A program made the position numbers and the translations under genes. This document shows positions 2,669-32,300 of a stretch of 34,198 nt of DNA, in pieces; the stretch's first letter is position 1, and each line of letters begins with the position of its first letter. A model generated the notes under the pieces. The model was not told where the DNA came from, did no database searches, and saw only the letters and a program-made list of their open reading frames with translations. Origin of the DNA: a virus (lineage: Duplodnaviria; Caudoviricetes); IMG/VR virus record IMGVR_UViG_3300034357_001685, positions 1 through 34,198 of that record; one strand, 5' to 3'.

Positions 2669-2955
2669 AAACTGAAAAAGCCCTCTCCAAGCGAGCATTC
2701 ATGCGGCTCACCGGGTTTTCTTTCCCGACCGTCCAGCAGCTTTGGAACGACCCGTCGTTCCCCGTGGTCGCCGAGAAACTGTTTTGGTCGGACTTTGTGG
2801 CGTGGCGGCGGCGTAACCTGCGAGCCCCGCGTTCGCATACTCCGCCAAATCCTGCACCCGGTGGCGATCATACAACAAATGCACCAACTCCGAAGAGTGG
2901 TTCACCAGTCGCATTGCCACCTCGCGCGGCACGCCTTCGCGCCTCATTTGCGTAA
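2665..2955 (+). CDS. putative excisionase / small HTH DNA-binding protein
   Basis: 'ALSKRAFMRLTGFSFPTVQQLW…FP…LFWSDFVAW' is a winged-HTH Xis-like pattern. It converges on the integrase and has an ATGA-coupled start. Confidence 0.6.
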   Translation: MKTEKALSKRAFMRLTGFSFPTVQQLWNDPSFPVVAEKLFWSDFVAWRRRNLRAPRSHTPPNPAPGGDHTTNAPTPKSGSPVALPPRAARLRASFA

Positions 2956-3841
2956 TCTTTGTCACCCGCAAACAATGGAAACTCACGCCCTTGATTCCCA
3001 AGCTTTGGAAAAAATTCTGCCAGCACCTCGACGGCTGGAACGGAAACTCGGCGATTGTATGTGTCCGGCGTTTTTCCTTTTTCATCGCGCGAAACATTTC
3101 CATGAGCGCGTCGGGAATCGGAACACTAAACGCCTTGCGCCGCCCACCCTTCGGAGCGGGAAATGTGATCGTAGGCACGGCGGCTTCCAGGTCGATGAAG
3201 GTGAGGGGAATCCTCGTTTCCCTCAAGCGGCAGCCGGTGAAAAGGCCAATTTCAAAACACACCCGCATCCATTCCTCGCGGGATTTCACGGCCTCTCGGC
3301 ACAATTCAATCTCCTCCGGGGTGAATGCTCGCTTCACCTTTGTCTCATCCTTGCGAAGTTTCAGGCTCGCCAGCGGGTTGGCGACAATCAGGCTGCGTCG
3401 CACCGCTTCGTTCATAATCATTTGGAGAAATTTAATTTCTTGGATCGCCGTGTTGCGCCCGGCCCGCTTACCGCTCTTCTTTTTCTGATTGGGGCGCCAC
3501 ACGATATAATCCTCCACATGCGAGTAGCGCACAGAGGAGATGTCCAGACGATTTTCCTGCAGGAACATCTGCATCCATTTCCAAGCTCCGTTGTAGCGGA
3601 TCTTGCTGTCCTCGGCCAAGCCGCTCGTCGCGATAAATCGATCCACCCACTCCCAGCCAATCTTGGAAACCGGGGCCGAGCGAAATTCCGAAACCTCCGC
3701 CTCGGCGCGCAAGGCGCGAGCCTTCGCCGTCTCATTGGGGTCATCGTGTCGCAGGCCTGTGGAGGATTTCTTCCATTCTCCGTCAACTTTGTGACGCAGA
3801 TACCAGAACGGCTTGCCGGACATTTTGAAAAGAGAGGCCAT
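2708..3841 (-). CDS. int: tyrosine recombinase (phage integrase)
   Basis: Catalytic residues R (FTGCRLRE), K (PKGG), HxxR (FHCLR), H (VNHSS) and Y (LLYDR); N-terminal arm-binding-like 'FWYLRHKVDGEWKKSSTG'. Confidence 0.92.
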   Translation of the reverse strand: MASLFKMSGKPFWYLRHKVDGEWKKSSTGLRHDDPNETAKARALRAEAEVSEFRSAPVSKIGWEWVDRFIATSGLAEDSKIRYNGAWKWMQMFLQENRLDISSVRYSHVEDYIVWRPNQKKKSGKRAGRNTAIQEIKFLQMIMNEAVRRSLIVANPLASLKLRKDETKVKRAFTPEEIELCREAVKSREEWMRVCFEIGLFTGCRLRETRIPLTFIDLEAAVPTITFPAPKGGRRKAFSVPIPDALMEMFRAMKKEKRRTHTIAEFPFQPSRCWQNFFQSLGIKGVSFHCLRVTKITQMRREGVPREVAMRLVNHSSELVHLLYDRHRVQDLAEYANAGLAGYAAATPQSPTKTVSRRPRGTTGRSKAAGRSGKKTR

Positions 3842-3851
3842 GATTATTTTG

Positions 3852-4031
3852 TGTTCCCCCTCGTCAGGGGGACAAGGGGGACAAACTCACAAAACACGAT
3901 GTCGCTTCTCTAGGCAAATCAAAACATTATGAAACGCTATAAAACGGATACTAAAATCGCCGGTTCGATTCCGGCCCTCGCCTCCCTTACCAATCAACGA
4001 CTTGCGGAGCAAAGGGGACAAGAGGGGGACA
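3852..4031. mobile_element. attP-like attachment site (core, IHF sites and arm repeats)
   Basis: Core 3959-3985. WATCAANNNNTTR matches at 3917-3929 and 3992-4004. AGGGG(G)ACA repeats at 3866-3874, 3875-3883, 4013-4020 and 4023-4031, plus an inverted variant at 3852-3861. Lies directly upstream of int. Confidence 0.85.
3959..3985 (+). tRNA. 3' fragment of a tRNA (probably tRNA-Cys) serving as att core; not a full tRNA gene
   Basis: GCCGG-TTCGATT-CCGGC T-arm, then CCTCGCC (acceptor 3' strand), discriminator T and CC. An implied 5' GGC plus U73 is characteristic of bacterial tRNA-Cys. Confidence 0.8.
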
Positions 4032-10830: not shown

Positions 10831-12687
10831 ATGAATTCTCATGACATCGTGCGAGCAAACCCCGGCGTGTGGTTCGAGACCTACGGGCGCATCCGCGACA
10901 CTAGCGGGAAGCAGGTGACGCCGCGCATGAATGTGCTGCAGCGCCGGATCAACGCGCTGTATGTGCAGCGGCTGATGGAGCAGCAGCCCCTCCGGGCGAT
11001 AGGCCTCAAGCCCCGCAAGCGAGGATTCTCGACCATGGTGGCGGCGATCCATTACGCGCAGCTGCAGAACTTCGCGCATCAGGGCGTCGTCATTGGGGAC
11101 AAGCTGGAGACGGCCGATGTCGTGTTCCGAATGATGCAGAATTTCTCAGACCACGACGGATTCAAGCTCAAGTGGGGCAGCAAGCCCGACTCCACGAGCG
11201 AGCGGATGCGGTTTCCTCACGGGTCGCTCCTCCTGCAGGCCACAGCACGCGGCAAGGCCACGGCGCGCGGCATGACGCCGCAGTTCATCCATGGCACGGA
11301 GGTCAGTCACTGGGAGAGCCCTGAGGAAGCGATGGACGCCTCGATGAACGCTGTGCCCGACTCGGGATTCAACACGGTCTTTTGGGAATCGACGCCCTTT
11401 GGGGCAGGCGAGCCATTCGCGCAGACATGGGAGTCGGCGCGATGGCCTACTGCGGAAGAGTGCGGAGGCGCCGAGTATTGGAAACCCTGGGAAGCTATGT
11501 GCCCCGACCAGCCACCTGGAGGTCTGCGCGACCGGCTGTTCGTTCGGGTATTCGCAGCCTGGTATGAATTTGACGAAAGCGTCATGAAGCTGACTGCTGA
11601 TCAGAAGCGGGAGATCCGCGACAGCTTGGACTCGGAGAGTTGGTATCGAGGCGAGCAAAAGCTCATCGACCTCTACGGCAACGACGGGCCGGTGGGCCTG
11701 CGCCTCGGGACCGAGGTCGGGCATGCTGATGTGTGGGAGCAACTGGCATGGCGACGGTTGACGATCAAGACCAAGTGCCGAGGCAGTGTGCGCATTTTCA
11801 ATGAGGAGCATCCGACCGACCCGAAGTCGTGCTTCCTGGCGAGCGGCCGTCAGGTGTTTGACGAGGACGGCATCACGCATATCCAGTTGCTTTGCCGAGA
11901 ATCGCCAACGCATGGCGATGTCAACGACCAGGATGGACGGGCGACATGGCGACCGACCTCGATGGACGCAGCGACGGTGTGGCGCTGGGAAGCCCCGAAG
12001 GTTGGGTGCCGGTATCTCATCTCGGCGGACTTGGCGGAGGGCGAGGACCAGACGAAGGGCGACAACCCCGATGCGCACTCGGCGCTGGTGTGGCGGGACG
12101 AGTATCTGGACGAGCGCGGGGTGCTGTGGCCGATCAAGCTGGCCGCGCGGGTGAGGCCACCGAACCGGATGCCCATGATCCCGTTTGCGAGGTTGGTGAG
12201 GGCGCTGTCCTGGTATTACGGGAACTGCATGGTCATTCCGGAAATGAATAATTCAGGCATGTCGTTCATGACGGCACTTCGCATGATGGAAGGTGGGCCG
12301 TGCCCCCCGATCTGGCAGCGGAGGGAGCGCGATCCGCACAGCGGCACCGAGCGGGCATGGGACGGCTGGAGGACGACGGACAGTGCGGAATACAAGGGCG
12401 TGCGGGCGACGATCATCTGGCACATGCACGAGTTACTGCGCAACAAGCTAGTGGAGATTCGTTGTCCCAATATGGCGACGGAGTTGGCCGATTTTGTGGA
12501 CAAGCGGGGGCGGATGGAAGCCGGTAGCGGTCACGACGACGATGTGATGTCGGCGGCGATCGGGCTGTATAACATCGGGTCGGCAACGGAGTATGCCCGG
12601 GCGGTGCGGGTGGACTTCATGCCAAGGGATGTGGAGCTGTGTGAAGCGAGGGATACGAAGAGCGGGATGTTGGCGATGAAATGGTGA
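10831..12687 (+). CDS. terL: terminase large subunit
   Basis: Walker A 'LKPRKRGFST', Walker B 'FIHGTEVSHW', coupling motif 'ESTPFG', RNase-H-like 'ISADLAEG', 'IPEMNNSG' and 'HDDDVMS'. Confidence 0.92.
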   Translation: MNSHDIVRANPGVWFETYGRIRDTSGKQVTPRMNVLQRRINALYVQRLMEQQPLRAIGLKPRKRGFSTMVAAIHYAQLQNFAHQGVVIGDKLETADVVFRMMQNFSDHDGFKLKWGSKPDSTSERMRFPHGSLLLQATARGKATARGMTPQFIHGTEVSHWESPEEAMDASMNAVPDSGFNTVFWESTPFGAGEPFAQTWESARWPTAEECGGAEYWKPWEAMCPDQPPGGLRDRLFVRVFAAWYEFDESVMKLTADQKREIRDSLDSESWYRGEQKLIDLYGNDGPVGLRLGTEVGHADVWEQLAWRRLTIKTKCRGSVRIFNEEHPTDPKSCFLASGRQVFDEDGITHIQLLCRESPTHGDVNDQDGRATWRPTSMDAATVWRWEAPKVGCRYLISADLAEGEDQTKGDNPDAHSALVWRDEYLDERGVLWPIKLAARVRPPNRMPMIPFARLVRALSWYYGNCMVIPEMNNSGMSFMTALRMMEGGPCPPIWQRRERDPHSGTERAWDGWRTTDSAEYKGVRATIIWHMHELLRNKLVEIRCPNMATELADFVDKRGRMEAGSGHDDDVMSAAIGLYNIGSATEYARAVRVDFMPRDVELCEARDTKSGMLAMKW

Positions 12688-14367: not shown

Positions 14368-17300
14368 ATGATCGACACCGACGACGAAGAGGAATTGATC
14401 CCCGGCAGCACGGCCGAGGACTATGTGGAAGCGGAGCCGGAGCCAGTCCCCGCTGCGGCGCCTTCCGCGCCCAGCGATGATTTTGCAACGATGCCCGAGC
14501 CTCCCGAGGCCCCGGCATTTGAGGTCACGCCGAAGCCTCCGCGCCGCCCGGAGTTGAGTCCGGCGCCCTCGGACTACCCGAAGAATGTGGCGCGCATGCG
14601 CGATTGGGCGGAGCGGACGGGAGAGTGGGAAGAGCGCGAGAACGCTAAAGCGGCGCGCAAGGAATTTAGCGAAGCGCGCCGGACGCACAACGCCGAGACG
14701 CGGAAGGTGAGCGCGGCGACAGGGGCGCAGTATGACTACGACGCCGACCGCCTCGCCCGCCCGAGGATCGACCCGCAGACCGGCGAGCAGGCATTCACGA
14801 AGCGCGTGAGTCCCGTGCGGTGGGACGAGCAGGGGCGGCCCTTCCAGGTCATCCAGAACGAGCAAGGCAAGCGCAGCGAGCGGATCGCCGATCCGGATGC
14901 CGGTGCCGCGATTGGCCCGAACCCCACCGCCCCCGAAGACCCCTCTATTTACCGGAAAACCAAGTTTCAACCGTGGGAAGCCATCGACCCCGAGGAAGGC
15001 ATTAACTCCCCGGATGGCCGGGTGGTGCGCGCCAGCGCGAAGGCGCTTTTTGATCGGGAAAAAACCACGATGAAGCGCGAGCGCGACGAGATTGCCTTGA
15101 ACTTGGGCGACCCTGCGCGACCGACCGGCTTGAGCCCCGAGGCCCGGGCGAAAGTCGAAGGCGAACGGCAGGGGTTGGCGGAGCCCGCGCCGCCGCCTGC
15201 GGAGGTCAAAGGAATGTTCGGCGGAGTGAATATCGAAGCCACGGAAGCTGCGAAGAAAAAATGGCAGGAAGGCGAAGCGTTCCGCTCTGGGTTGTTGGCC
15301 GAGAAGCAAGCGATGCTGGCGGCAGACGACGAACGCGCCGGGTTGAAAGCCCGAGCCTACGAACTTGATCAAAACTTGTTTGGGCTGGAAAAAATGCCCC
15401 TCTCTGAGTTCGTGCAGGAACGCCGCAAAAAAAAAGCGGAGAGCCTGGCGGCCCTTGATCCCGAGGCCGCCCAGGCGGAGATCGAGAAGCGGGGAGCAGC
15501 GATCGCTGAGGAAGACGCCGCCACGGACGCGGCCATGCAAGAGGTGCAGCGCCGCAACGCCGCGCTGAACGAGCGCACGGCAAAAGGCATCACGCTGCAA
15601 GAAATGGACTCCGTCGCCACCGAGCGCGCCGCGATCGAAGCCGACGCAGCGGGGCTCGAGGAGCGCATTGCCAAGCGCAACGCCGCCGCCGGGGAAGTCA
15701 TGCAGGGTGTGGAGGCGATCAAGGCGAAGGACGCCGTGGAACGGAAAAAATCCCGCGACGAAATTCGTAAAACGCCCGAGCTTGCGCCTTTCGCTGATCG
15801 TCTCGACGCGCTCGACGCCGAGACCGAGACGCGGATGTCGGCCATCGACGCCATGCCGCAAGGGCCCGGCAAGGAAGCCGCCCGCGCTGCTTTGCAGGAG
15901 GACATTTCCCAAAAATCCGCCGTCATCGACAGCGAATACGGTGTCGCCGCGCGTGGAGGATTTCCAAAATCGTTTGACGATAAGGAATGGGACGACGCTG
16001 ACCGCAAAGCCTGGAAAGCCCTACCGAAGGAAAAGCAATCCGAGTTTTTGGAGACGAAAGCCTATGTGAACATCCGCGACGATATTCGCAGGCAATACGA
16101 CTTCACCGCCAACCGCACATTCGATCAATGGAAAGAGGAAAACGCCGAACGCCTCGCGGCGCAAAAACCCAACGCCACAAACGAAGAATTGCAGGCCGAC
16201 TACCAGAAAAGCCAAGAGACGATTTTGCGGGCATTGGAAGTCACGATGCGGCGAAAAGGCCCGACTCACGACGCCGCCGTGCTGGAGATTTTCCACAACA
16301 ACGACCCTCAGAAGCAGGCTTTGGCCGAGTTGGAGCGGAACCCTGCTGAGTATTGGGCCGGACAGATCAAGCGGGCTTTTGGAAATTACCAAGCATTCAA
16401 CGCCGCCGCCGCCGGGCTGATTGCCAATTTTATTCCCGGCCAGAAAGACAACGCAGCGTTAATGCTGCTGGGCGCACAGGATCAGCAAAATGACCTTGCC
16501 CGCAAATACCCGCAGGTGGTGGAAGGGATCAAAAATGTTGGATCCTCCGGCGATGCCGCCATGTGGGCTGGGCAAACATTGACGAGTTTGGCCCCGGACA
16601 TCGCCGAAAGCATAGCGGCAGGTGCAGCTGGAGCCGCCGTTGGAGCCGCCGTCGGAAGCGCCGTGCCCGTCGCGGGAACAGCGATCGGCGGAGCGGTGGG
16701 AGGTATCGGTGGTTTTTTTGCGCGATTGCTTGGCAAGGCGGCGGTTAAAAACCTTGCCAAAAAAGAACTTCTCAAGCAGGGCGTCAAAAAAATCACGCGC
16801 GAGGCGCTGGAGGCGACCGGAAAAAACATTCTCGCCCGCGAAGGTGTCGAGCAACTTTTGAAAACCGAAATCCGCCGCATCGGCGCGAAGACCGGCATCG
16901 TGCTTGGCGGAGCGGCCAGTTCCTACAAAGGCAACACGGCGGAGATTTACATGAACCTCCTCGGCGAGGAGGGCGTGGATGCCGACAGCGCCGCCGCCAC
17001 CGCGTTGGTTTTTGGCGTTCCCGCTGCCGCCATGGACATGGTGGCCGAAACCGGCCCGCTGACCCGCCTATTGGGATTTGGCGCCAAGCCCGCAAAAGAA
17101 TTCGCATCCGCCGCCGCGAAATATCGAGCCCGCGTGATGGAGGAAGCCGCGCAGTTTGGCGGAACGGTGCTCATGGAATCTGGGGCCGAGGGTGCGCAGG
17201 CGCTCACCGGCTTTGCAGCGAAACGATTCGCCAAGGACGGATTCGATTTTGCGAACTACTCGCCCATTACCCAAGAGGAATGGGATGAATTTGTCGAAAG

Positions 17301-20300
17301 TTCCGCCGCCGGAGCGCTTGGCGGCGCGGTTTTCGCCACCGCCGGAGCGGCAGGCGGATTGAGGGATGCTCGTAACGAATTCCTGCAAAACGAGCCGCCC
17401 TCCGCGCCCCAGCCTGATCCCTCTGGCACACCCCCGCCACCGGTTTTGCCCGAGAACATCGCCGCCATGCAAGCCGAGATCGGGCAGGCCGCCCCAGAGC
17501 GCCAGGCCCCACTCGCCACGGCTATCAAAGTCGTTTCCGGCGCGCCGATGGATTCGCTCACGAAGGCCGAGCAGGATGCCATCAAGCCCCATGTAGCCAC
17601 GGTCGGCGGGCAGACCGTGCTTACCGACGATATTTTGACAGAACTTTCCCAAGCCTCCCCACAGGCTGCCGCGCTCATGCAGCAGGGGAGCATCCGCGAC
17701 GAATCCACGCGGCGGTTAGAGATTCTTGAACAAGAAAACGAACAAGAAAAAAAAGGAGGTGACACACCAAATGAAATCAAGCTGCAAAACATCGGCAAAA
17801 ATGCCGGCCAAGTCGGCCAAGTCGGCTCCCAAGGCAATGAAAATGCCCAAGGGAATGAAAATGCCCAAGGCCTCGGGACGGGGGCGCTAACGCTAACAAA
17901 CCAAGTCCGCACCGGGATACAGTCCGGAGTAGCTTCAGCCGATCCCGACATGCGGGAACTGTGGGCAGATCAATTAAAGCGCAGGTTAGAGAAAAAAGGG
18001 ACATTGACATGGCAAGATGTCCCCCAAGAGCTCAACCAGGCAATGGATACAGCCTCTTTTGCATCTTTGAAGCAAGCATTAGAGGAAAACCCACAAGAAG
18101 CCATCGCAATCATCGCAGGAAAACAAAACCTGACGCCCGACGGCACGGCGGGAAGCCTCACGCTCCCGCCGTTGCCCGTGGGGCGCTACGGCAGCCTCAT
18201 CAACAAACGCGAACAAGCCGTGGCCGGCACACTGGCCACACGGTTGGTCCAAGGCGGGGCGGACCAAGCCGCCGCCGCAAAATTCAGCGAATACTATGTG
18301 AAGCGCGAGACCCTCCGGGGGTGGGGCACCGACAAACTCAAAGCCGCTGTGCAGGAATTCTCTTCGGCGGGAGGCATGACGAATCCCCAGGGCATCATTG
18401 AGAGCGTCGCCGCCTCCGATGCCTCCCAACTTGCCGAGGTCGACGCCATCACCACCCAAGTATTCAAGAGCTTGGACACCGATCCCCGCGCGGCGAGCAT
18501 GACCCCTGCCGAGCGCAAGGATTTCGAGACAGTCGTGCGCCAACAGATCGCGCCCGCCGTGCTGCGCTACGGTCCGATTCTACGGCGCCTCGAGGCATTC
18601 TTCGACCCCTCGGGCAAAGACGACCTCGCTGCAGGCTCCGACAAATTAGTCATCAACGCCGCCGCGCTCATCGGAGAACGGGGGGTGGATTTCTGGAGCA
18701 ACACCGAGAACACTGATATCATCATCTCCGAAGAGCTCGGCCACGTTTCTCAGGTAAAAATCCTCGCGCAAAAAAACCGCGAGCGCACCGGAGCGACGGG
18801 GTCCGATATGGAACTCGCCCTGGCCGAAGCCGAGGAGATCTTCCTCCAACTCCCGCAACCGCTACAGCAAGCCTCGAGCACACTTTACGGCAACTCCCCG
18901 AACCCCGGCATAAGCGGCATGGAATTCTTCCGCCAGATGCTCCAAGGCGACATCGCCATCTCCGAAGGCCGTGTGCTGGACAGGGACGGCAAAGTCATCA
19001 CCGAACTCGCGGTGAACGACGCCGGATGGATCGATAAAATGCGAGGCGTCTTTGAGCAACTCTTCAAAGCCTTCAACAGCCTACGCAGCACCCTCTCCAG
19101 CGACCTCAAGCAAGAAGGCCGCAGCGAAGCCGAGATCAAGCTGCTCACCGACCGCGTGGAGACCATCCGCACCGAGTCGCTTACATTTTTCAAATCCCTC
19201 AAAAAAGAGGGTGACCGCATCCGGGGTGCGGCGTATGAGAACCAGTATGCTACTACCCGCAACTCAAATAAAAACCAAGCCACCGACACCCGAGGAGGCA
19301 CAGGAACAACGCCAGATTCTTCGGGACTGCTACAACAAACAACGCCCCCTGGAAGCCCAAATGCGGCGCTCGATGGCACCTCAAGCCAGCAGCCTCCTGC
19401 AGGCACACCTCTTGGAGCAAATCAAGCCACCCGGCTTGCAGAGCTAGAATCCCGCGAGTCCGAGCGCGCCGCCCGCGAGGAGCGCGCCAAGGAGCGCCGC
19501 GCCGAGTATGTCGAGCAGCGCGCCGGGGATTTGAAGGATTACGAAAAGGTGGTCGCCGCCGCCCCTGAGGACGCCCGCGAGCAAGTCGCGGGCCTCGTCC
19601 AGCAAGCGCCTTCCGGCAAGGTCTCCTATGTCCTCGTCACCAACAACCGCCGCGTCCCCGCCACCTACATCGCCCTGCCCCCAGGCGTCGTGCAGACCAG
19701 CCACATCGGCCCGGATTTCCAGAAAAACCCCGAGTATGCCGGCCAAAACACCCGATCCTACGATACCGACCCCGCTGAGCAGAACAAAGTGCGCGCCGGA
19801 TCTCTGCCCGGTGCGCTAAACGAAGACATCCTTACCTCCACCGACCCCAGCAGCGCGAACAGTGCGCCGCAGGTCGCCATCGTCATCGACGCCGGTCCCG
19901 ACGGTCAGCCCCGCTCCCGCTGGCAGACAGCCGGAGGCAACGCCCGCGAGATGATGAGCAACCTCGCGCCGCAGGAAGATCAAGACCGCGTCAGCGAGGC
20001 TTGGCGCGAGAAGTCCGGGGTGTTTGGCTTCCAGTCCGTCCCCGACGGCTTCCGTGGCTACCGGTTTCTCGGCACATTCGACATCCGCACCCCCGAAGGG
20101 GCCCGCGATTACCAGAAGCTGGTCGATGATCTCAATCCCTCCACCGGCGTCGTGCAGGATGTCTCCGACCGCGCCGATCTGGATGCGAAAAATATTCCAC
20201 TCGATTTGGTGGCGGATCTTCCCGTGATGATGAGCGGCAAGCAGGCCACCGAGGCCCTCTCCCGCCTTCTCACCGCGCCCGGCGACATCGTCGAGCGCAA

Positions 20301-23300
20301 CCGCGTGGCCCCCATGGCCAAGAATCCCGCGCAGGCCCAGGCCTACATGCAACGCATCATGTTCGCTGGCGGGCTCGGCCTGCCCAAGCTCACCAACAAG
20401 ATCGCCGATTACCAGTTGCAAAACCGTAACGCCGCCTTTGTGGAACTCGCCGCCGACTCCGCCAAAGCGGGCATTGCGCTGCGCCAGAGCGGCAACCCAA
20501 GCATCGCCGACGCCTTTGGCAGCATGCTTTCCAACGTGAGCGATTACCTCGACGATGGCCGCACGCTCAAGAGCGCCTTGGAACTGGCCGCCAACCAAGT
20601 CGAGATGGATGCCGTGGTGGGCGAGACCGCAGTGGCAGTCTCCGTCGCCACGCGCCTCGGAGAGTTAATCGTCCTCGACAAGCGCGGCCGCATCAACACC
20701 GAAGCCACCAGCGATGCGCACAAAGACTACATGCTCGCGCTGGCCAGCGGGGTCGCCAAAGCCAACGAAGACGCCACCATGGGCAACATGTTTGCCGAGC
20801 AGCCCCTGTCCATGGCCGAGCGCATCGCCGACATCAACGCCGCCCACCGCCTCAAGACCCAAAAAGACAGCGAAAAGACGCTATCCGCTCCCCGCCGCCA
20901 ATCGACTCCCGCCACCCGCATCCGCGACCTCGAGCGGAAGCGCCGCCAAGAGGGGCTCAACCGCTACGAGAGCGAAGAACTCGCCCGCCTGGAGAAAGCC
21001 GCCGGGCAGCAGTTCATGGACTTCTTCGAGACCACCCGCACCCAGCGGTTCGAGTTGCAGCAGGAAGTCGCCCGCCGAGGCATCGAGAGCGCCCCCGGAG
21101 AGCAAATGGACCTCGTTCTCGCCGCCGCTCGCAGCCAAGGGCGGGTAAATGCGGCGGGAATTCTTTTAGAGACAAAGCAGGAACGATTTGGGCGCATCTA
21201 TCAAGAGCAGGAGGAGGAAACCAACGCTTTCCCGGCGGAAAAAGTCGAAACAGAAGATCAGGTTTTATCTCGTTTGCGCGGAAAATTCGGCAACGAAGCC
21301 GTTGAAAATACGATTGCAGGCTACAACGAACTTCGAACCAAGCACGAGCGGTTCAAAAAGCGTTTTGATAAAGAAATTGACGCCATGGCGCTTCAGTTCA
21401 ATGGGGAACCCATTCCAGCGCCGATCAAGGGACTCAAAAGATCAATTGAAAAAGCTTTCGATGATTACGACGGCAAGGCGTCCATGCTGAAAGATTTGCT
21501 TCGGGCCACAATCGTTGTGGATACCCTGGAAGACGCTGTAAATCTCAACGAAGAAATTCAGCGCCGGTATAAAATTATCAAATGGAAAAACCGGTTTGCT
21601 CCCCCTTTGCCAAGCGGTTACGGCGACATGTTAGGAGTTGTCGAAATGGCCCCAGGTATATTTGCGGAGATCCAAGTCCATGTGCCGGAAATCATCAAAG
21701 CCAAAAAAGTCGGGCACAAATGGTATGAGTTAGAAAGAACTTATGCGGGAGACCCGACAAAAGCCACAGAACTGGCCGATGTGCGGGCAAAAATGCAGGA
21801 ACTTTATTTGGCGGCGGCCAATGCCTTCATCATGAGGGTCACAAGCTCTCGGAATTCCGAAAAAGAAACCGGAGAGGCCATGTCCAAGTTCATGGAAGTG
21901 GTCCGGGACATTTCCCTAGGCATTCCGGTTGACCAAATTTTCGGGTCTTCGCCAGGCTCCCAAGCAACGGGCACATCGGGAAACACCTCCAGAAACTTGG
22001 TGCCATTGGCGAAATCAGATTCATTCATCACTCCTTCTCCTACGCGCGGAGCCTCGGCCGGTCAACCAGTAATTACGCTCGCCAATATTCAGGATTACGC
22101 AGGCGATGTAGATCTTTCCGAGTTGCAAAACATTGAAGGCGTTAAAATGCCTAAGGCGTTCAAAATCGACCAAGAAAAACTTTCGCGAGGCGAGGTGCGG
22201 GTTGTCTCTGTCAGCACACTGATTAGTCCTAAAAACGAGTTACTTGATCCGCGTTATTTGGCCGGCAAGAAAAAAGACCCCCGACAAACCGCCGCCGATT
22301 GGATGGCAAAAACGATCAAAGGGGAGCCAGGGACCAAACGCCGAGCCCCGCTGGATGCCATCGACAATCGCGACGGAACCTACACGATCGTAGACGGCAA
22401 CGCCACGGCGCAGGCGGCAATGCTGGCAGGTTGGAAAATGCTTCCCGTCAACATCGTCAAACCCCAAGACGCCACCCTCGCCGCCGCCCGCTCGCGCCGC
22501 AACGACGACCAACTCGCCTTCGATTTCACGGCGCCTGCCGTGCAGGAATACAAATCCGCCCTCGAGGCCGAGGGCATCACCCACCCCGTCGCCCAGGCGG
22601 CCGCCGCGCAGAGGGACCTCGGCATTCCCGCAGGCCCAGCGCTCAATTTGTTTGGCGAGCCCGACTCGCTTTTGGAGGGCAGGCAAACCACTCCCACCCG
22701 GCCCTCCGCCACACCAACTCCCGTTGCAGAACCCACCGCGCCTGCTCCCGCGACTGCTGTTCAACCGCCGCCCGCACCGGAGCCCACCCCCGAGGTATCA
22801 AATAATACAGCGCCCGCGGAGCAACCTGAATCGCAGACCGATCCCGCCGCAGTGGATCGGCTCAAGACCGCCGTGGGCGAGGCTTTGCGCAGCAACACCA
22901 GCATTGACCGCCGCGTGCTCAAAAATATGGCGCGCACGGCAGGCATCACCGATCCGGAAGCCGCCGCCAAATTGGTGGACGAGACAGCGGAACTTGCAGT
23001 GGTGGAAATAGCCCGCGAAATCGTGGCCCGTGGCGACAACCCGCTGGTCACTTACGAAAATCTGGTGGATCTCTACGCGCTGCAACCCGGCTTGACGAGC
23101 CGCACCAGCACCAGCCGGATCAACCAGGCATTCAGCACCCCTGCCCCGCTCGCCTATGTGGCCTCGCGCCTGGCCGATGTCGCCAACGGCAAGAGCGTTT
23201 CGGAATTCACCGCCGGGAACGGCATGCTGGTGATGGAATCCTCTCCATCCCGCGCGATCGTGAACGAACTCGATCCCGCCCGCGCCGCCCGCCTGCGCTC

Positions 23301-26300
23301 GCAGGGATTCCAAGTCACCGAGGCGGATGCCACGGTCGCCCGCCCGCAGCAGGTGGATACGATCGTGATGAACCCGCCCTTTGGCACGCTCATGCAAAAT
23401 GACGGCACCAACCAACGGTGGACCGTCACCGTGCCGGGCGGCGCGCAGTTCGAGACCACTCAGATCGACCACCAGATCGTGATGAACCAACTCAAAAGCC
23501 TGTCCGCAGACGGGCGCGCGGTTTTCATCATCGGTGGCAAGCTGGGCGACACGCAGGAGGCCCGCGCAGAGGCTTACAACACCCGCCAGACCCGCGAGTT
23601 TTTTTATTTTCTCTACAAAAACTACAATATCACCGACCACTTCACGCTTTCCGGCGACCTCTATCGCAAACAAGGCGCGGCCTGGCCGATTGATATCTTT
23701 GTGATCGAAGGGCAGGGCCGTTCGTCTTTGGAGTTGCCAAGCATCGTTGCCCCGTCTATAGTCAACTCTTGGGATGATCTCCGAACAAAAATTCCGGCAA
23801 ATGCTTTCTCGCGCCGAACCTTTGACAGCGAAAGAACGCTCGTGGGAGCGGACGGTCAGCCAATGGTTGAAGGGGGACGAGGACGACCTGCTGCTGAACT
23901 GGAACAACCTGCCGCTATCCGCCCTGGACAACTTGGCGGACGAGCGCCAAATCCGGAGCGCGTGGGACAACCCGGCGGAAATCCGCCCGATGCTTCTGGC
24001 GGCCAGCAACTATCTCCCGACTCCGGACTGGTATCAGGAGGGGATGCCGGAGGACGAGATGCAGGAATCCGCGATGGACTGGCTCAACAACCAAACCGCC
24101 TGGTAGCGGACGAGGAACCGGCGGAAAAGGCCGGCCGCTATCAGAACAAGTATGTGCCGCAGAGCGGCAGTTATTCGGTGGACACGCTTACGCCCACCAA
24201 CCTTGCCAGCGCGCAGAAAACCGCACTGAAAAACCTCGAAGCCCGCACCGGCATGCCGGTGGACCGCTTAGTCGCCAGCAAACTGGGGTTTGCCACACCC
24301 GAGGAACTCCACCGCAAATCGGACGGCAGCGACCGCTTCAGCGCCGAGGCCATCGACGCCCTCGCCTTGGCAATCAACAATGTCGAGAACGGCAGCAGCT
24401 TCATTATCGGCGACCAGACCGGCATCGGCAAAGGCCGCATTGCCGCAGGCATGCTGCTCTACGCGAAAAAGCGCGGGTTCATTCCCGTGTTTGTCACGAG
24501 GAAGCCCGACCTTTACGCCGACATGATTCGGGATATTTCCGACATTGGGTTTTACGACGAATTGCGCCCGCTCATTACAAACAGCGGGCAGTCTTTTGAA
24601 GACCCGCGCGGCGAGCGCGTGCGCACCGGCACCGCCGCGAAGCACGATGTGATTTTGCAATCCTTGAGGGAGACCGGCCAGCTTCCCGAAGGCACCAACA
24701 TGGTCTTCACCACCTACGACCAGTTGGGCAAGGATGCCCCGAGCAGATACACCGAGACCAAAAAAGAAAAAGCCAAGCGCAAAAAAGACGGCAGGGCCCG
24801 GCCGGACGGCAAGCGCGCCGCCATGATGCGCGCCATCGCTTCTCGCGCTTTTTTCGTGCTTGACGAAAGCCACACCGGAGCGGGCATCGACAGCGACATC
24901 GGCATCCGCTTGCGCGAGTGGCTGCCCACTTCCTCGGGCGTTTACTACTCCAGCGCCACTTTTGCCAAGAACCCCACCGCCATGCCGCTCTACGGCCAGA
25001 CGACCATGCGCTACGCAGGGCTTTCTTCCGACGAACTCACCGATGCCATGACGAGCGGCGGAGTGCCGTTGCAGCAGGTCGTTTCCTACATGCTCGCCGT
25101 GGACGGCCAATACCTGCGCCGCGAGCGTTCGTTCGACGGCATTACCTTTGGCGAGATCACCGTGGGCGGTGAAAACGATGCCCAGCTTGCCGATCAATTC
25201 GCCACCGCAGCCTCGGAGATGCTCATGATGAGCATGGATAAACGGTTCGACAAAGCGCTGAAGGATTTTTCCAAACTCCTCAAGCGCGATGCCGCCACCC
25301 TTGAGAGCAATACCGGCGAATCCGCCATGGCGAGCGTGGAGTCCTACAGCTTCGCCGGGCAGATGCAGAATCTCACGCAGCAGTTCCTGCTTTCCGTGAA
25401 AGCCCGCTCCACCGCGCAGGATGCCGTGCAGCGCGTTCGCAACGGCGAAAAAGTCGTCGTCGCCCTGCAGGCCACCAACCAATCCGCCATCGAGGATATC
25501 CAAGGCAACATGGAATGGGGCATGAATTTCAACGGACTCATGCGCCGCTATGTAGACAAAATTTTCAGCGTGCGCGTGAAGGAGCCCGGAACAGAAGAGA
25601 GCGTTTCCATGAGCGTCTTTGAGCTTGGCGCGACCTTGGGAGTGGACACCTCGGAGTTGCAATCCATCCGCCAACGCATGATCTCCATGCTTGACGCCCG
25701 CGACTTCGGCACCCTGCCACTCTCGCCGATTGACGCCATGGAGGAAATCTTTGAAGAGGCGGGCGTGACCTATGGCGAGATCACCGCCCGCAAAACCGGC
25801 ATGCGCGCGGGGGCGATCTACCAGCGCCCACCGAAAGATTTCAACACCGCCGCAAAAATCCAATCGGTAAAGGATTTCAACTCCGGCAGCAAAGACATCC
25901 TCATCATCAACGCGGCGGGCAGCACCGGCATTTCCATGCACGCGGCGAAAAACTTTGCCGACCAGCGCACCCGCACGATGCTCATCGCGCAGCCCCACTT
26001 GGACATCAATGAGTTTTTCCAGACTCTTGGCCGCATCAACCGCACAGGGCAAGTCACCCTGCCGAGCTTCTACATCGTGCGCAGTGAGCTTCCCGCCGAG
26101 CGCCGCATCGCCGCCGTGCTGCGTTTGCGAATGGCAAATCTCAACGCCAACACAACCGGAGCCGCCGAGAGCAACGTTTCTGAAAATGTCACCGGCGATT
26201 TTCTCAACGAATACGGCGACCAGGCCGCGCAGACCGCTTTGACGAACAATCCGGAAATCCTCACCAAGATGATGCGGATTTTTCCGAAATACTACGCCCC

Positions 26301-29300
26301 GAGGTCGTCCCAAGAGAACAGCGAAAGCGAAGCGGTCGAGATGGAGCCCGGCCAGTTCATCCGCAAGCTCACCGGCCACATGGTCGTGCTCACCATCGCC
26401 GAGCAAGAGGCCATGTGGAACTCCATCGACGCCGAATACGCCTCGATCATCAATTATCTCAACGAAACCAATACCAACACGCTCCAGGCCCAATCCTACG
26501 ACTACCGAGCGAAGACGGTGGAAAGCACCGTGATTTTCCAAGGCGAGAACGCCGAGGGATCTTCCATGTTCTCCTCGCCTGCCTACCTCGAGCGCGTGGA
26601 AATCAACGATCCCCGCCAGCCCATGACGCTGGCCGAGGCAAAAGAACTCCAACAAGCCGCCCCGGAGGACATGCAACGCGTGGCCGAGGAATTTCGCAAA
26701 GCGTCCCAGAACGCCGAAGAGGTCGCCATCGCCCGATTGAAATCCCAGATACAGGAATGGAACGACGAACGCGACAACCGCTACCGCTCCCGTTTCCGCC
26801 AGACACGCGAACTCGTGAACCGTATGTCCAACTACGCTGGCCGGTTCGTCCAGATCGAGATGGGCGAGGAGACCATCGTCGGCATCGTCACCGCCCTGCG
26901 CACCAACGCCCAGCAAAGCGGCGCGCCCTCGCAGCAAAGCGTGGTCATTTCCACCAACACGCCCAACCGGAAACTCACGATTCCCTTGAGCCGCGTGGAG
27001 TCGATCAATTTCGTGCCCCCCTACAACAACTCCCGCATGGAGGAGCAATGGGCGCGGCCCGATCAATCCCGCTCCGAGCGAGTCATTGTCACCGGCAACA
27101 TCCTGGGCGCTTACAGCGCGTTCAACCGCATGGGCCGTGGCACCGGTCGCATCATCACTTTCACCACGGAAAACGGAGCCGTGCGCACCGGCATGGAAAT
27201 GCCCCGTTCGTGGGCGGAGACGCGCATCGTCGAGGTGCGCGAGCATGGCCAAGCCCGGCAGATTTTGTTGGACCAGCAAAGAACCCTCACCACCGCCACC
27301 GGAGCGAACCTACGCTACAACACGACGGATCGCGTGCTCGTGCTCAATGTCCCCGGCGACCGCCAGCGCGGCGGGCTTTTCTGGCGCAACCCCCAACTCA
27401 ATTCCCTCATGATCGGCGGGGAATTCCGACAAACCGGCGGCAACATGGTTGCCAATGTGAGCCCACAGCGCCTACCGGAACTGATCGGGTGGTTTAACCG
27501 CAACAACCACACACTCACGCATGTTGAAACCCCCGGCGACCGCACCCTCGCCGCCGCACGCCGCCAGACCTACGATCCCAACCAACTCCAACTCGATTTC
27601 GATGCCGCCCCGCGCGACCAGGTCGCGGCGCAGGAGGATGCGGATAAATCCGCCGCCGCCCGCTTCCAGTCCGGCCTCGAGGGCGTGATGGGCCTCGCCT
27701 CGGGCTACTCCAACATCCCGGGCGTGGACATGGACGAAGTGCTTCAGACCGCCCGCATCGCGCTGGCCGATGCCGCCCGCTCGTTCGACGCCTCGCGCGG
27801 CGTGCCGTTCGGCCCCTACTCCTCCATCGTCGTGCGCAACCGGCTCAACAGCCTCTACCGTCGCGAGAGCCTCCGCCGCGAGCGCATCCCGCAGAGCCTC
27901 GACGAACCACTCCCCGGCGACTTCAGCGAGACCCGCCAAGACTACACGCCCGACACCACCACGCCCGATGCCGCCACCACCGCCACCCGCAACGAAGCCC
28001 GTGGCCTCATCGACACCATCACCGCCACGCTCCCAGAGCGCATGCGCGCCGCCGTCGAGGGCTACATGCAACGCCGCCAACAGGAAGAAATCGGCGAGGA
28101 ATTCGGCATCTCCAAACAAGCCGTCTCCCGCCTGCAGCAAGAAGGATTCAAACGCCTGCGCCAAAAACTCAACGAACGCGGGATTTCGAGTGTGGGAGAA
28201 CTCTTGTCAGCTCCTCAAAAAAACACGCCGCTCGGAAGCGAACGAGCGCCATTCTACCTCAAATCCGCCGAAGTCCTCGACCAGAAGGTGCAAGGCAAGA
28301 GTGCCACGCTCGACCAGATCAAAGCCCTCCTCTCGCCGCAAAACGGCATCAAGGCCGAAGAGGTCAAGTGGACCGGAGTGATGCAGGAAGCCGAGCGCCT
28401 CGCCAAAGAAAACAACGGCAAGGTGCCGAAGGACGCACTGATGGAGTTTCTGGCAAAGGATGGGAGTGTGCGCTTGGAGGAAGAGTTGTTTGGATATCAC
28501 AAAGATGCAGTCTATCCGGCAAGTTGGTATGCAGAAAAAAAACCAAACGGAATCTGGTGGGTCGTTGATCCAGATGATTTGGAATCGGGAAGTCCTGCTT
28601 TACGGGCTACCGGCGAAACAAGAACCGAAGCCTGGAATAACGCATTGCAGAGTTATCGCAGAAGGTCTCAGCGCGAAACTGTAAAATACGAGCAATACCA
28701 ACTCCCCGGCGGCGAAAACTACCGCGAGGTGGTGCTGGCAATTCCTGTTAAAGTAAGTTTGCCTAAAGGATATGAGGCAAGGCAAGAAAATGGACAATGG
28801 GGAGTTTTTGCAGTTACTGACGATGGGAATATCTATGGTGAAGGATCGACTCGCGATCAAGCAATTCAAAGAGCAAATGAATACCTAAAAACAGGTAAAA
28901 CAACCTCTGAACTTGATCCTTCATACACCTCCTCCCACTTCTCCGACATCCCCAACTATGTCGCCCACATGCGCCTCAACGAGCGCACCGATGCGGAGGG
29001 CAATCCCGGATTGTTTGTGGAAGAGATTCAAAGTGACCGGCATCAGGCGGGGCGGGAGAAGGGGTATGCGCTGACAGAATCGGAACGAGCAGAAGTGAAA
29101 GCTCTGGAAGATAAGGCAAGACGCGAAGGTGGCGTTGTGAGGTTCAGCGCAGAAGACAGGGCGCGATGGGATGAGTCAGGCGCAAAATTTGAAGGCGCTG
29201 GCATCCCAGACGCCCCTTTCCGCACGACTTGGCCCCTGCAACTTTTTAAACGCGCCTTGCGCGATGCCGTCTCAAGCGGCAAGGACTGGATCGGCTGGAC

Positions 29301-32300
29301 GACCGGCGAGACGCAGGCGGCAAGGTATTATTTAAGCAAGCAGGTTCAAGGCGTCATTGTGGACCGCCAAAGCAACGGCAATTTTTCCATTCAAGTGAAG
29401 CCCATTGGACGGAACGATTACGAGGTTGTTCAACGCGGCGTCAAGGAAGACAAGGTAGAGGAATATATCGGCAAAGAACTCGCATCAAAACTTGAGGACA
29501 AAGCGCGCAATCAGTTCGAGGGTCTTGACCTCAAGCTCGGCGGCGAAGGAATGCGCGGCTTCTACGACCAAATCCTGCCCAAGGAAATCGCCAAGTATGT
29601 GAAGCAGTGGGGAGGGAAGGTGGAGAAAACAATCATCGAAACTCCAACCCCAGGTTATGAGGCCTACGCTAAGACTAAAATCTTCAAAGATGCTACCCCC
29701 ATCTGGCGCGTGGGCATCACTTCGCAAATGCGCGAGAGCGTCCAAAAAACAGGCCAATCCCTTTTCGCCCCATCCGGCGCACCCCAGGGCGACGGGGGGT
29801 TCTTTCGCCCCGAGGACGAGCCGTTTGATGAGCATGTGAACCAGCTTCTGAACGATCTCCAAGGCGTGCCGTTCGACATGGATGGCGCCGTGCCGTTGCA
29901 GGAAAAAGCGGCGCAAGAAGAGGGTAGGGGACAACCCTACCAAGTCGGCCGCCCCGACCTGGCCTTCGGCGCGAACAATCCCGATGTGCGCGGGTTGGAT
30001 CAATTCTACACCGACCGGTTCTTGCCCGAGACCGAGGCCCAATGGGAAACCTCCGCCCGCGATATGGTGGCGAAGGATTTTGAGGGCACCCGGCGCTCGA
30101 TTGAAAAAGCCGGTCTCGCCGGGCAGACGATCTCGCCGGAACTCACCAAAGCCTCCGACCAGATCGCCAATTCGCTTCGCCAAAAAATGCTCCAGACCGG
30201 CAAGGATGAAGACCGCCGGGCGTTCAATGTTTTCTGGTATGCCTACCGCTCCACGGGCACCGAGGCGGGCCGCGCGTTGGCCGCGCGCCGCGACCCCTTC
30301 AAGACCCCCGCCATGCGCCACCGCGAATTCCTCATAGACCTCATGCTCACGCCGGGCAAGAAGGACAAGGCGCGCATCGATGCCGAGCCGGACCCCGCGA
30401 AAAAAGCCAACCTCATCGACAGCGTGACCGCCGCGCTTCTCAAAAAACTCAAGGATGCCGGAATCTCTCCCGAGGACATTCTAGGCAACCGCGTGGTCGT
30501 GGGTCTGAACAACGCAGAGATCCAGCGCCAATTCCGCACCGGCCTCAATGCCAAGCAGGCCGAGGTCTTCGATCTTCTCCTGCGCAAAAACCAAACGCCC
30601 ACGCAGATCGCGCAGCGCACCGGCATGAAGCCCGACGCCGTGGAAGCCGTCTTCACCGCCTTCAAAAACCGGATGCGCCAGCAGCATCTTGCCAAATTCA
30701 AAGCCGGTATCCACAAGCAAACCGAAGCCACCCTCGGGGCCGCCCGCACGCCGACCCCCAAAGCAGCGGGACTCTTCGGCGACCAGGTCTCAGACGCCGA
30801 AGCCGATGCCGCGTTCAACCAATGGTTCAGCGGCATGGTGGGCACGAGCGATACCAAGAAAATCGGCCGGCCGAAATTCCGCATCGACGATCCCGCCCAT
30901 GTGATGCGACTCGCCCGCGCGATCCAAAGCGCCCGTGGCGAAGCGGGTCTGAGCGACATGGCCTACGAATGGTGGATCATGAACATCCTCTCGGGGCCGC
31001 AAACCCAAGTGGTCAACATCGCAGGCAACTCCGGTTTCCTCGCGCTCGACACCACGCTGCAGCGCGGCATGGAGGCACTTGTCAATATTTTCGTGCGCGA
31101 CCAGCAAGCGGCGCAGTTCGGAGAGTTCCAATCGTTGTTCAAAGGCATCCTTCCAGGCATCACCAAAGGTCTCGCCATGGCCGCGAAAGCGTGGAGCGCC
31201 GAGCACGATTTCTACGAGCACACCGTCCTCGGCACCCCGCTGGAACTCGGCCAATCCGACAAGCTCGGCAACACCCGCGCCGCCATCCCCGGCCAAGCGG
31301 GCAAAGTGATCCGCATCCCCGGCCGCGCCCTGCTTTTTGCCGACAGCTTCTTCAAATCGCTCAGCGGGCAAATGAATGTCGCCGCCTTCGCCTACCGCAT
31401 CGCCAAGGCCGAAGGACTCACCGGCCAAGCCCTCACGGACCGCGTGGCGCTTCTTTCCAAGACCCGCAACGAGGTTGTCAGCGAAAACATGCCTTCCGCC
31501 GCCCCTTCGCAGGAAATGGTGGAGTTTTTCGCCCGTCAGCTCGCCCGCCGCGACGAATCGCTCGATCCTGCTGCCCTCGTGGCAAACCGCTCCAGCGAGG
31601 CATGGGAACTCGCCCGCGAGCAAGCCGCCTACGATGCCGCCAAGGCCGCAGGCTGGACCGAGGCCGCGTGGATTCGCGCCGTGGACAAATCCAAGGAAAT
31701 GACCTTCCAGCAGGATTTGCAGCGCCGCGCCGAGGGCGGCAACTTGTTCGAGGACGCCGCCGCGAAGCTGCAGGATGCACGGTTCAACAACCAACTCATC
31801 GGGTTTTTCTTCCCGTTCGTCAAAACCCCCTACAACATCTTCCGCACCGGCATCCGCAAATCCCCGCTCGGAGCCGCGAACCTCACCTTCCAAGCCGGGA
31901 AGGGCCTCCTTTCGATGAAGGATGGCAAGCCCTTCCTCGAAGGCGATCCCACCCTCGTGCGCGACATGAGCGAGCAACTCCTCGCCTGGACCGCCATGGC
32001 GCTCATCTTCGGAGCCGTGCAAGGCGACGAGGACGATGACGACAAACTTCTCCTCATCACCGGCAGCCAGCCCCGCAGCGAATCCAGCGCAGGAATCCGC
32101 GACCTCAACACCCGCGCCACCGGGGGCGAGTATGTGATCCGGATCGGCGGGCGCAATGGCATCACCATCCCCTACGGCCGCCTCGATCCCATCGCCACCG
32201 TGCTCGGCACCACCACCGACCTCATCCGCTCGATCAAACGCAACGGCACGCCCACCGAAAATCTCGCCTCCGTGTGGAACTACATGGTCGCGCAAACCAA

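Follow-up and report, generated by a model that had tools for sequence, protein, structure and literature searches.

Can a phage carry a potentially lethal enzyme as an internal part of a giant protein, and what would protect the cell in which that protein is made? This question is raised by a virus of the Caudoviricetes (IMG/VR record IMGVR_UViG_3300034357_001685, positions 1 to 34,198; this whole stretch of 34,198 nucleotides is referred to as the window), in which an alarmone synthetase-like domain is followed by an open reading frame (ORF) on the opposite strand. A first-pass annotation had proposed that the two form a hidden pair of a small alarmone synthetase that is toxic (toxSAS) and its antitoxin. 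Antisense genes that are conserved, lie wholly within another gene and have a function that can be predicted are a rarity among prokaryotes, and a contested one.

An alarmone synthetase domain within a giant phage protein

The phage record includes an integrase and a terminase among its genes, and the window sequence is present in lake-water DNA runs. The terminase large subunit is encoded at 10831-12687, and two genes downstream lies the gene that carries the pair:

14368..32898, plus strand, giant polyvalent (DarB-like) phage protein of 6176 aa carrying the toxin/antisense module (ORF and domain matches)

Domain searches identified a Strawberry-notch helicase (AAA_34/Helicase_C_4) and sigma70 regions in the 6176-aa protein, together with a weak match to an N6 methylase. 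The protein thus shows the features of polyvalent proteins, which are very large and multidomain, with an SNF2/Strawberry-notch helicase, a methylase and variable effector domains. Its packaging in the virion and injection with the DNA are likely, given the position of the gene behind that of the terminase and passages on such proteins in PMC5512222. A complete sigma70-like region 2 and 4 is also encoded within the giant protein at 27700-28200, possibly representing a virion-delivered sigma factor. Elsewhere in the window, the integrase gene (2708-3841, minus strand) is covered by an open plus-strand frame of 372 codons (2795-3913), for which no family match was found.

The synthetase domain is located near the centre of the window:

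21328..21825, plus strand, alarmone synthetase domain of the Tas1/Apk-like kind, a predicted toxin that would synthesise (p)ppApp (Tas1 matches and motifs)

The alarmone synthetase-like motifs listed in the first-pass annotation (K..RS.EK, DLLR, SGYGD and EIQVH) are all read in the same frame as the 6176-aa ORF, with K-x3-R-x3-K at 21427-21453, DLLR at 21493, SGYGD at 21613-21627 and EIQVH at 21667. The Pfam RelA_SpoT match of the domain is sub-threshold (E 0.11). As a single sequence it matches Tas1 (6ox6_A) with an E-value of 7e-11 (phmmer against PDB), and a profile of 27 homologous domains matches Tas1 at 1e-24, versus at least 8e-4 for the (p)ppGpp synthetases in PDB. Ten residues (K43, R47, K51, D65, R68, G106, Y107, D109, E123 and Q125) are invariant in 27/27 rows of the domain alignment, the window included, nine of these rows having been obtained by a search with the tail motif. 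We take the invariant columns to be the synthetase motifs KxxxRxxxK, DxxR, GY and ExQ. On the strength of the Tas1 match and the invariant catalytic residues, 21328-21825 is, as judged from its sequence, a Tas1/Apk-type enzyme, and we infer that it synthesises (p)ppApp. The earlier description of the domain as RelA/SpoT-like hence holds for a synthetase, and is narrowed from generic RelA/SpoT to the Tas1/Apk (p)ppApp branch. The 6176-aa protein does not have the architecture of Apk1 or Apk2, as domain searches found no match to a PAAR or MuF carrier in it, and a further 3743 aa follow the ExQ motif, placing the toxin domain internally rather than at the C-terminus. The window domain is predicted to work like an Apk, yet is neither an Apk1 nor an Apk2.

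An open reading frame nested on the opposite strand

Three features are located on the minus strand at and behind the end of the domain:

21804..22028, minus strand, nested antisense gene of 74 aa, predicted Tis1/IapK-like immunity protein (conserved family, profile and fold)
22037..22041, minus strand, Shine-Dalgarno sequence AGGAG, 8 nt before ATG 22028 (sequence; enrichment of such sequences in homologs)
22037..22065, minus strand, doubtful promoter TTGACC-N17-TAGGAG (literal sequence only)

The 75-aa minus-strand ORF reported earlier, with a stop codon overlapping the 3' end of the domain, was recovered as described. It may start at GTG 22031 (75 aa) or ATG 22028 (74 aa) and terminates at TAA 21806-21804, the domain extending to 21825. 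The TAA is composed of the wobble T of a Leu codon and the TA of the codon for an invariant Tyr in the last helix of the domain, and the antisense frame shares its wobble positions with the giant gene. The AGGAG Shine-Dalgarno (SD) sequence previously assigned to this ORF is found at 22041-22037, with a second SD-like sequence, AAGGAG, at 22036-22031 (minus strand). When a family profile was built without the window ORF, it detected this ORF at E 1.8e-7 among the 578 six-frame window ORFs, the next best scoring 0.06. No family for the antisense protein was found in Pfam, PHROGs, NCBIfam or the ESM Atlas.

Conservation of the antisense family

A search with domain and tail gave three long proteins with the same odd tail. 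Loci gathered by domain motifs from viral, genome and metagenome collections amounted to 129, with the window counted and repeated contigs included. A member of the family is encoded antisense in 121 of these loci and co-oriented in one, and none was detected at E<0.05 in the remaining seven. Upon clustering at 70% domain identity, 33 of the 40 clusters were found to have the antisense gene in the same frame and overlapping the end of the domain; it is free-standing and antisense in one, co-oriented in one and not detected in five (L083, with a broken domain, L129/L186, L137, L138 and L188). The family is therefore antisense in 34/40 clusters and present in the toxin locus of 35/40, a sample biased towards relatives reachable via one or two domain motifs and a fraction biased upward by the 9/27 domain rows that came from the tail-motif scan. 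Conservation of the antisense ORF among homologs, suggested at the outset as a check, is thus observed, and the domains of the 33 overlap clusters range down to approximately 30% identity.

The family profile was trained on part of the loci, and nine held-out antisense clusters were matched at E-values of 6e-18 to 4e-2, two of them marginally (3e-2 and 4e-2). Among the 48 loci of the tail-motif scan, 37 were chance matches with neither a domain nor a family match, and the toxin domain adjoins in 11/11 of the true family matches from the motif search. The host proteins provide varied contexts, with ddrB-ParB, LPD22, LPD38, ART-PolyVal, RadC-like, topoisomerase and methylase neighbours. The base of the domain tree is not resolved, so that the tree gives no order of events. 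Nothing was returned when either protein served as a single-sequence query against the viral contigs. A search among proteins of near length, for which domain and tail were combined, gave 0/1752 candidates, and no credible match was obtained when family members were compared by tblastn with annotated phages and plasmids.

Several loci differ from this common layout. In L138 (G384:C35), with a divergent synthetase, a 74-aa antisense ORF with an SD occupies the same position below the profile threshold, and probably represents a further subfamily. In L129 and L186 an internal synthetase domain without an antisense partner is part of a NUDIX-containing protein, the NUDIX domain of which might detoxify. 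The sense ORF of L097 codes for a polyvalent protein that also contains a zeta-toxin domain.

Predicted fold and relationship to Tis1

AF2 modelling on the family alignment (pLDDT 82, pTM 0.70; 62 and 0.28 for the single sequence) predicted a small beta sheet and a C-terminal helix for the antisense protein. Tis1 (6ox6_B) was the first match in Foldseek, albeit a weak one (E 2.9, TM 0.48), was also first upon VIA re-ranking, and was first of 48,161 chains in a VIA-wide comparison, again weakly (Z 5.1, rmsd 4.9, 63 aligned, 11% identity; next Z 4.0). What gives weight to these scores is the identity of the top match, Tis1 being the cognate partner of Tas1, the solved protein to which the domain is most closely related. 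The sequence profiles of the family do not reach Tis1 and gave no PDB match, and membership of the Tis1 family, as modelled, is for this reason only likely. The antisense protein resembles the Tis1/IapK-like immunity proteins in being a small protein beside an Apk domain. In a profile comparison with the gene behind the MuF-Apk of PHB04, the hhalign probability was 4% and only the last 20 columns aligned, weakly. In PHB04 and two Deinococcus plasmids, the genes that follow the synthetases appeared alike by eye and were set aside, as significance was not reached.

The conservation of the family, its free-standing members beside the toxin domain and a fold comparison headed by Tis1 lend support to the hidden toxSAS-antitoxin pair proposed in the first-pass annotation. 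It is highly probable that the plus-strand Tas1/Apk-like domain and the minus-strand 74-aa protein constitute a nested pair, in which the latter would block the domain as Tis1 blocks Tas1. The alternative that survives best, itself improbable, accepts that the antisense gene is real and that its product binds the domain, and holds that the enzyme makes (p)ppGpp, modifies tRNA or takes part in mild signalling, giving a pair of regulator and enzyme. The substrate of the domain is not readable from the sequence, searches for Apk1-like proteins also return exported synthetases that make (p)ppGpp (passages of PMC12691689), and the RelA/SpoT domains of polyvalent proteins were read as alarmone signalling by Iyer et al. 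(passages of PMC5512222). This is countered by the proximity of the domain to Tas1, with a margin of over 20 orders of magnitude to every (p)ppGpp synthetase, by the association of Tis1-like partners with (pp)pApp producers in the relevant passages of PMC11782079, and by a dedicated partner in 35/40 clusters, which implies toxicity.

Expression signals in the window

The promoter reported in the first-pass annotation is literally present on the minus strand, as TTGACC at 22065-22060, a spacer of 17 nt and TAGGAG at 22042-22037, but its function as such is doubtful. A promoter scan of the window found 0 sites and did not call it, and its -10 element is non-canonical, the TAGGAG hexamer being without the final T and containing the same five bases as the SD AGGAG. 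As a consequence of this overlap, promoter and SD are unable to serve one transcript, and the promoter, if used, would give rise to a leaderless mRNA. The nearest relative of the window, L140, has TTGACT-N17-TAAGAG at the same place, a likeness that could be explained by protein conservation too.

The state of these signals bears on a second alternative, more improbable than the first, in which the family is functional elsewhere and the window phage retains a vestige, with a decayed promoter and an ORF kept by constraint on the sense linker. The window is one of the 4/27 cluster representatives in which no TAnnnT box was found near the antisense start, and its antisense protein is a divergent member of the family (14-37% identity). 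Decay is at odds with the intact SD, start, length and stop of the gene and the intact catalytic residues of the toxin, with the TA(A/G)GAG layout common to L140 and L113, and with the existence of a relative, the independently called protein P0003, that is 77% identical to the antisense protein.

Evidence for a gene rather than a shadow frame

The ORF might also be a mere shadow, kept open and protein-like by a conserved Ser/Gly/Pro/Thr-rich sense linker. The wobble-sharing frame is often open by chance, with at least 60 open codons at 160/774 control stops, and ORF length alone is therefore no proof of a gene; Ser codons are moreover read as Asp/Glu in antisense, and the composition bias is shared with generic shadows. 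Other features discriminate between the two. An SD of at least 5 nt is found in 21/27 cluster representatives versus 4/119 same-frame control ORFs, the antisense ORF being present in 60/65 loci of the SD test. A TAnnnT box occurs 4-26 nt before the start in 23/27 representatives versus 101/1426 control starts (7%); it is placed exactly 19 nt before the start in 16/27, and three have a perfect TTGACA-N17. L038 and L103, in which a -10 box lies 5-7 nt before the GTG and an SD is lacking, carry leaderless versions of the antisense gene. Conservation at sense codon positions 1/2, compared in 12 disjoint pairs, is 0.77/0.83 in the domain and 0.83/0.79 in the overlap, and this flip was observed in 9/10 untied pairs (p 0.02), as would be expected if the antisense frame drives selection in the overlap.

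Some members of the family are independent of an open sense frame. In L112 and L181 the sense frame stops inside an intact antisense gene. L134 contains a free-standing counter-oriented copy (E 2e-11) with its own -10 box and SD, located behind a portal-synthetase fusion. In L187 (639-1097) a co-oriented tandem duplicate (E 1e-12 and 1e-6) directly follows a terminal synthetase, which is the classic toxin-immunity order, and the shadow frame has six stops.

A sense Tyr codon supplies the antisense stop in 23/27 representatives, the invariant Tyr in approximately 21 of them. The base next to the Tyr codons is a purine in 13/14; it is not in L112, the locus with a stop in the sense frame. The sense frame is open in 26/27 representatives versus approximately 20 expected under synonymous re-encoding. 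Depletion of Tyr, His and Gln in the nested proteins was considered as a sign of selection for an open sense frame and rejected, the same depletion being seen in generic shadow frames.

At family level the antisense ORF has its own translation and transcription signals and is under selection in its own frame, the hallmarks of an embedded gene, and the ORF at 22028-21804 behaves, at the level of sequence, as a real gene. The shadow reading, which is the least probable of the alternatives, appears largely refuted, since it cannot explain the free-standing members without an open sense frame (L187, L134 and L112) and leaves unexplained why promoters and SDs are enriched, why codon-position conservation flips and why the fold is confident.

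Boundaries of the cassette

Domain and nested gene form part of a larger unit:

21118..22491, plus strand, cassette delimited by a LAAARS linker repeat at either end and comprising the toxin domain, the nested gene and one more domain (repeats at 21118 and 22477; binned third-position GC)

Its delimitation by the LAAARS repeats and a third-position GC of approximately 0.5, versus 0.80-0.88 upstream, mark this unit as an apparently acquired cassette. Contigs from 4/4 lake runs examined match the window over 37 nt, with seven mismatches, and part from it exactly at the first linker (21136), beyond which they run into sequence not found in the window; they possibly stem from a related phage in which a different module occupies the site. 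The remainder of the cassette (22100-22470) has no Pfam match, and the same domain follows the nested gene in L140 and L038. By eye, it appears to be ParB/Srx-like. In total, four L[AG]AAR linker repeats are present in the giant protein (window 21118, 22477, 27547 and 30733), three of which have a Q-x-x-L/F-D-F/L-like motif nearby and two of which flank the low-GC cassette. These linkers may possibly be recombination or processing sites.

Proposed mechanism and implications

In the reading preferred here, the domain would make (p)ppApp and drain ATP, and the conserved 74-aa antisense protein would bind and block it as Tis1 does Tas1. An immunity cistron of the same orientation cannot come after a toxin that lies midway in an 18.5-kb ORF. 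The gene for immunity would instead lie antisense in the linker in the wobble-sharing frame, linker and immunity gene being each other's reverse complement. It would use a ribosome-binding site of its own and, in most homologs, a separate sigma70 promoter, both located further along the linker. A promoter for the host polymerase would free antitoxin expression from the late operon; the antitoxin would be made in the lysogen, or at an early stage of infection ahead of transcription of the late gene, and would protect the lysogen, or the infected cell during synthesis of the giant protein. If the giant protein is packaged and injected, as is likely, the toxin would act before new antitoxin accumulates, either to bring about a transient drop in ATP at injection or to kill non-immune hosts. 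(p)ppApp activity, toxin binding, expression timing and virion delivery are the parts of this scheme that we infer.

On a wider scale, we are mildly inclined to believe that a self-contained cassette has evolved in phages, made up of an Apk toxin and an immunity gene that has its own promoter and is overprinted in antisense on the linker behind, and that it can move by shuffling into the interior of unrelated virion proteins with their frame preserved; the proposed hosts of this cassette include helicase-methylase giants and ParB, ART, LPD and topoisomerase fusions. The injected proteins would transiently lower host ATP or kill non-immune cells, and lysogens with the cognate hidden gene would be protected, amounting to kin discrimination that is invisible to gene callers. 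Immunity genes may be hidden in the same manner at further toxin domains that lie internally in polyvalent proteins.

The family represents a widespread natural case of an embedded antisense gene (33 clusters and free-standing relatives), and offers an explanation of how a giant phage protein can contain a lethal enzyme in its interior. It further provides a candidate antitoxin for the RelA/SpoT domains noted in polyvalent proteins in 2017, with a way to clone and assay them, and suggests that standard annotation misses immunity genes inside toxin genes. The role of phage Apk toxins during infection becomes more testable as a result.

Comparison with known systems

In Apk1 and Apk2, as described in passages of PMC10083569 and PMC12226406, a C-terminal toxin is followed by a small immunity gene, and in (pp)pApp producers the acceptor site is blocked by Tis1-like proteins (passages of PMC11782079). 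The Tas1(Apk1)-Tis1 pair of the T6SS (PDB 6OX6; PMC10083569 and PMC11782079, in part) includes the closest solved relative of the window domain, Tas1, and Tis1 is of the same size as the antisense protein and its top, albeit weak, fold match. According to the same passages Tas1 is C-terminal on a PAAR carrier and has a separate immunity gene, whereas the window contains an internal domain and a nested antisense partner with its own signals. MuF-Apk2 of temperate phages, with IapK/BcTis1 and Aph1 (parts of PMC10083569 and PMC12226406), shares with the window a phage Apk toxin in a presumed virion protein and a small immunity factor acting by protein-protein contact. Unlike in the MuF-Apk2 systems so described, the window protein has no MuF domain, the toxin is not terminal and no operonic iapK follows downstream. 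A scan covering the window ORFs except for some small ones detected no Aph1/HD hydrolase.

The polyvalent RelA/SpoT proteins of Iyer et al. (2017; passages of PMC5512222) are giant phage proteins with a helicase, a methylase and an alarmone synthetase, as here, and the homologous loci carry ddrB-ParB, LPD22, LPD38 and ART-PolyVal domains. The words 'antisense', 'opposite strand' and 'overlapping' do not occur in the main text of PMC5512222, and its passages on the domain name no immunity partner. 'Antisense' is also absent from the main texts of PMC10083569 and PMC12691689, the supplementary homolog lists of which, like that of PMC5512222, could include the present proteins. A literature search outside most subscription journals gave no account of an alarmone synthetase whose immunity gene is nested in antisense.

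In the Tha/Ith system of Staphylococcus aureus phages (passages of PMC11087260), a small inhibitor gene lies antisense in an operon under its own constitutive promoter, and inhibition is timed to the phage cycle. This indicates that antisense inhibitor genes can time the activity of phage toxins, though without double coding: ith is a separate gene that interrupts the operon, whereas the window inhibitor is double-coded inside the reading frame of its toxin, and the enzymes are unrelated. The embedded antisense genes of Pseudomonas aeruginosa and Escherichia coli (parts of PMC8850804 and PMC9927249) are, as here, fully embedded and backed by evidence of selection. They are described in those parts as evolutionarily novel, whereas the window family is old, has free-standing members and has a predictable function directed at the product of its host gene. 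The toxin-immunity chemistry is known, and it is the nested antisense arrangement that is the new part.
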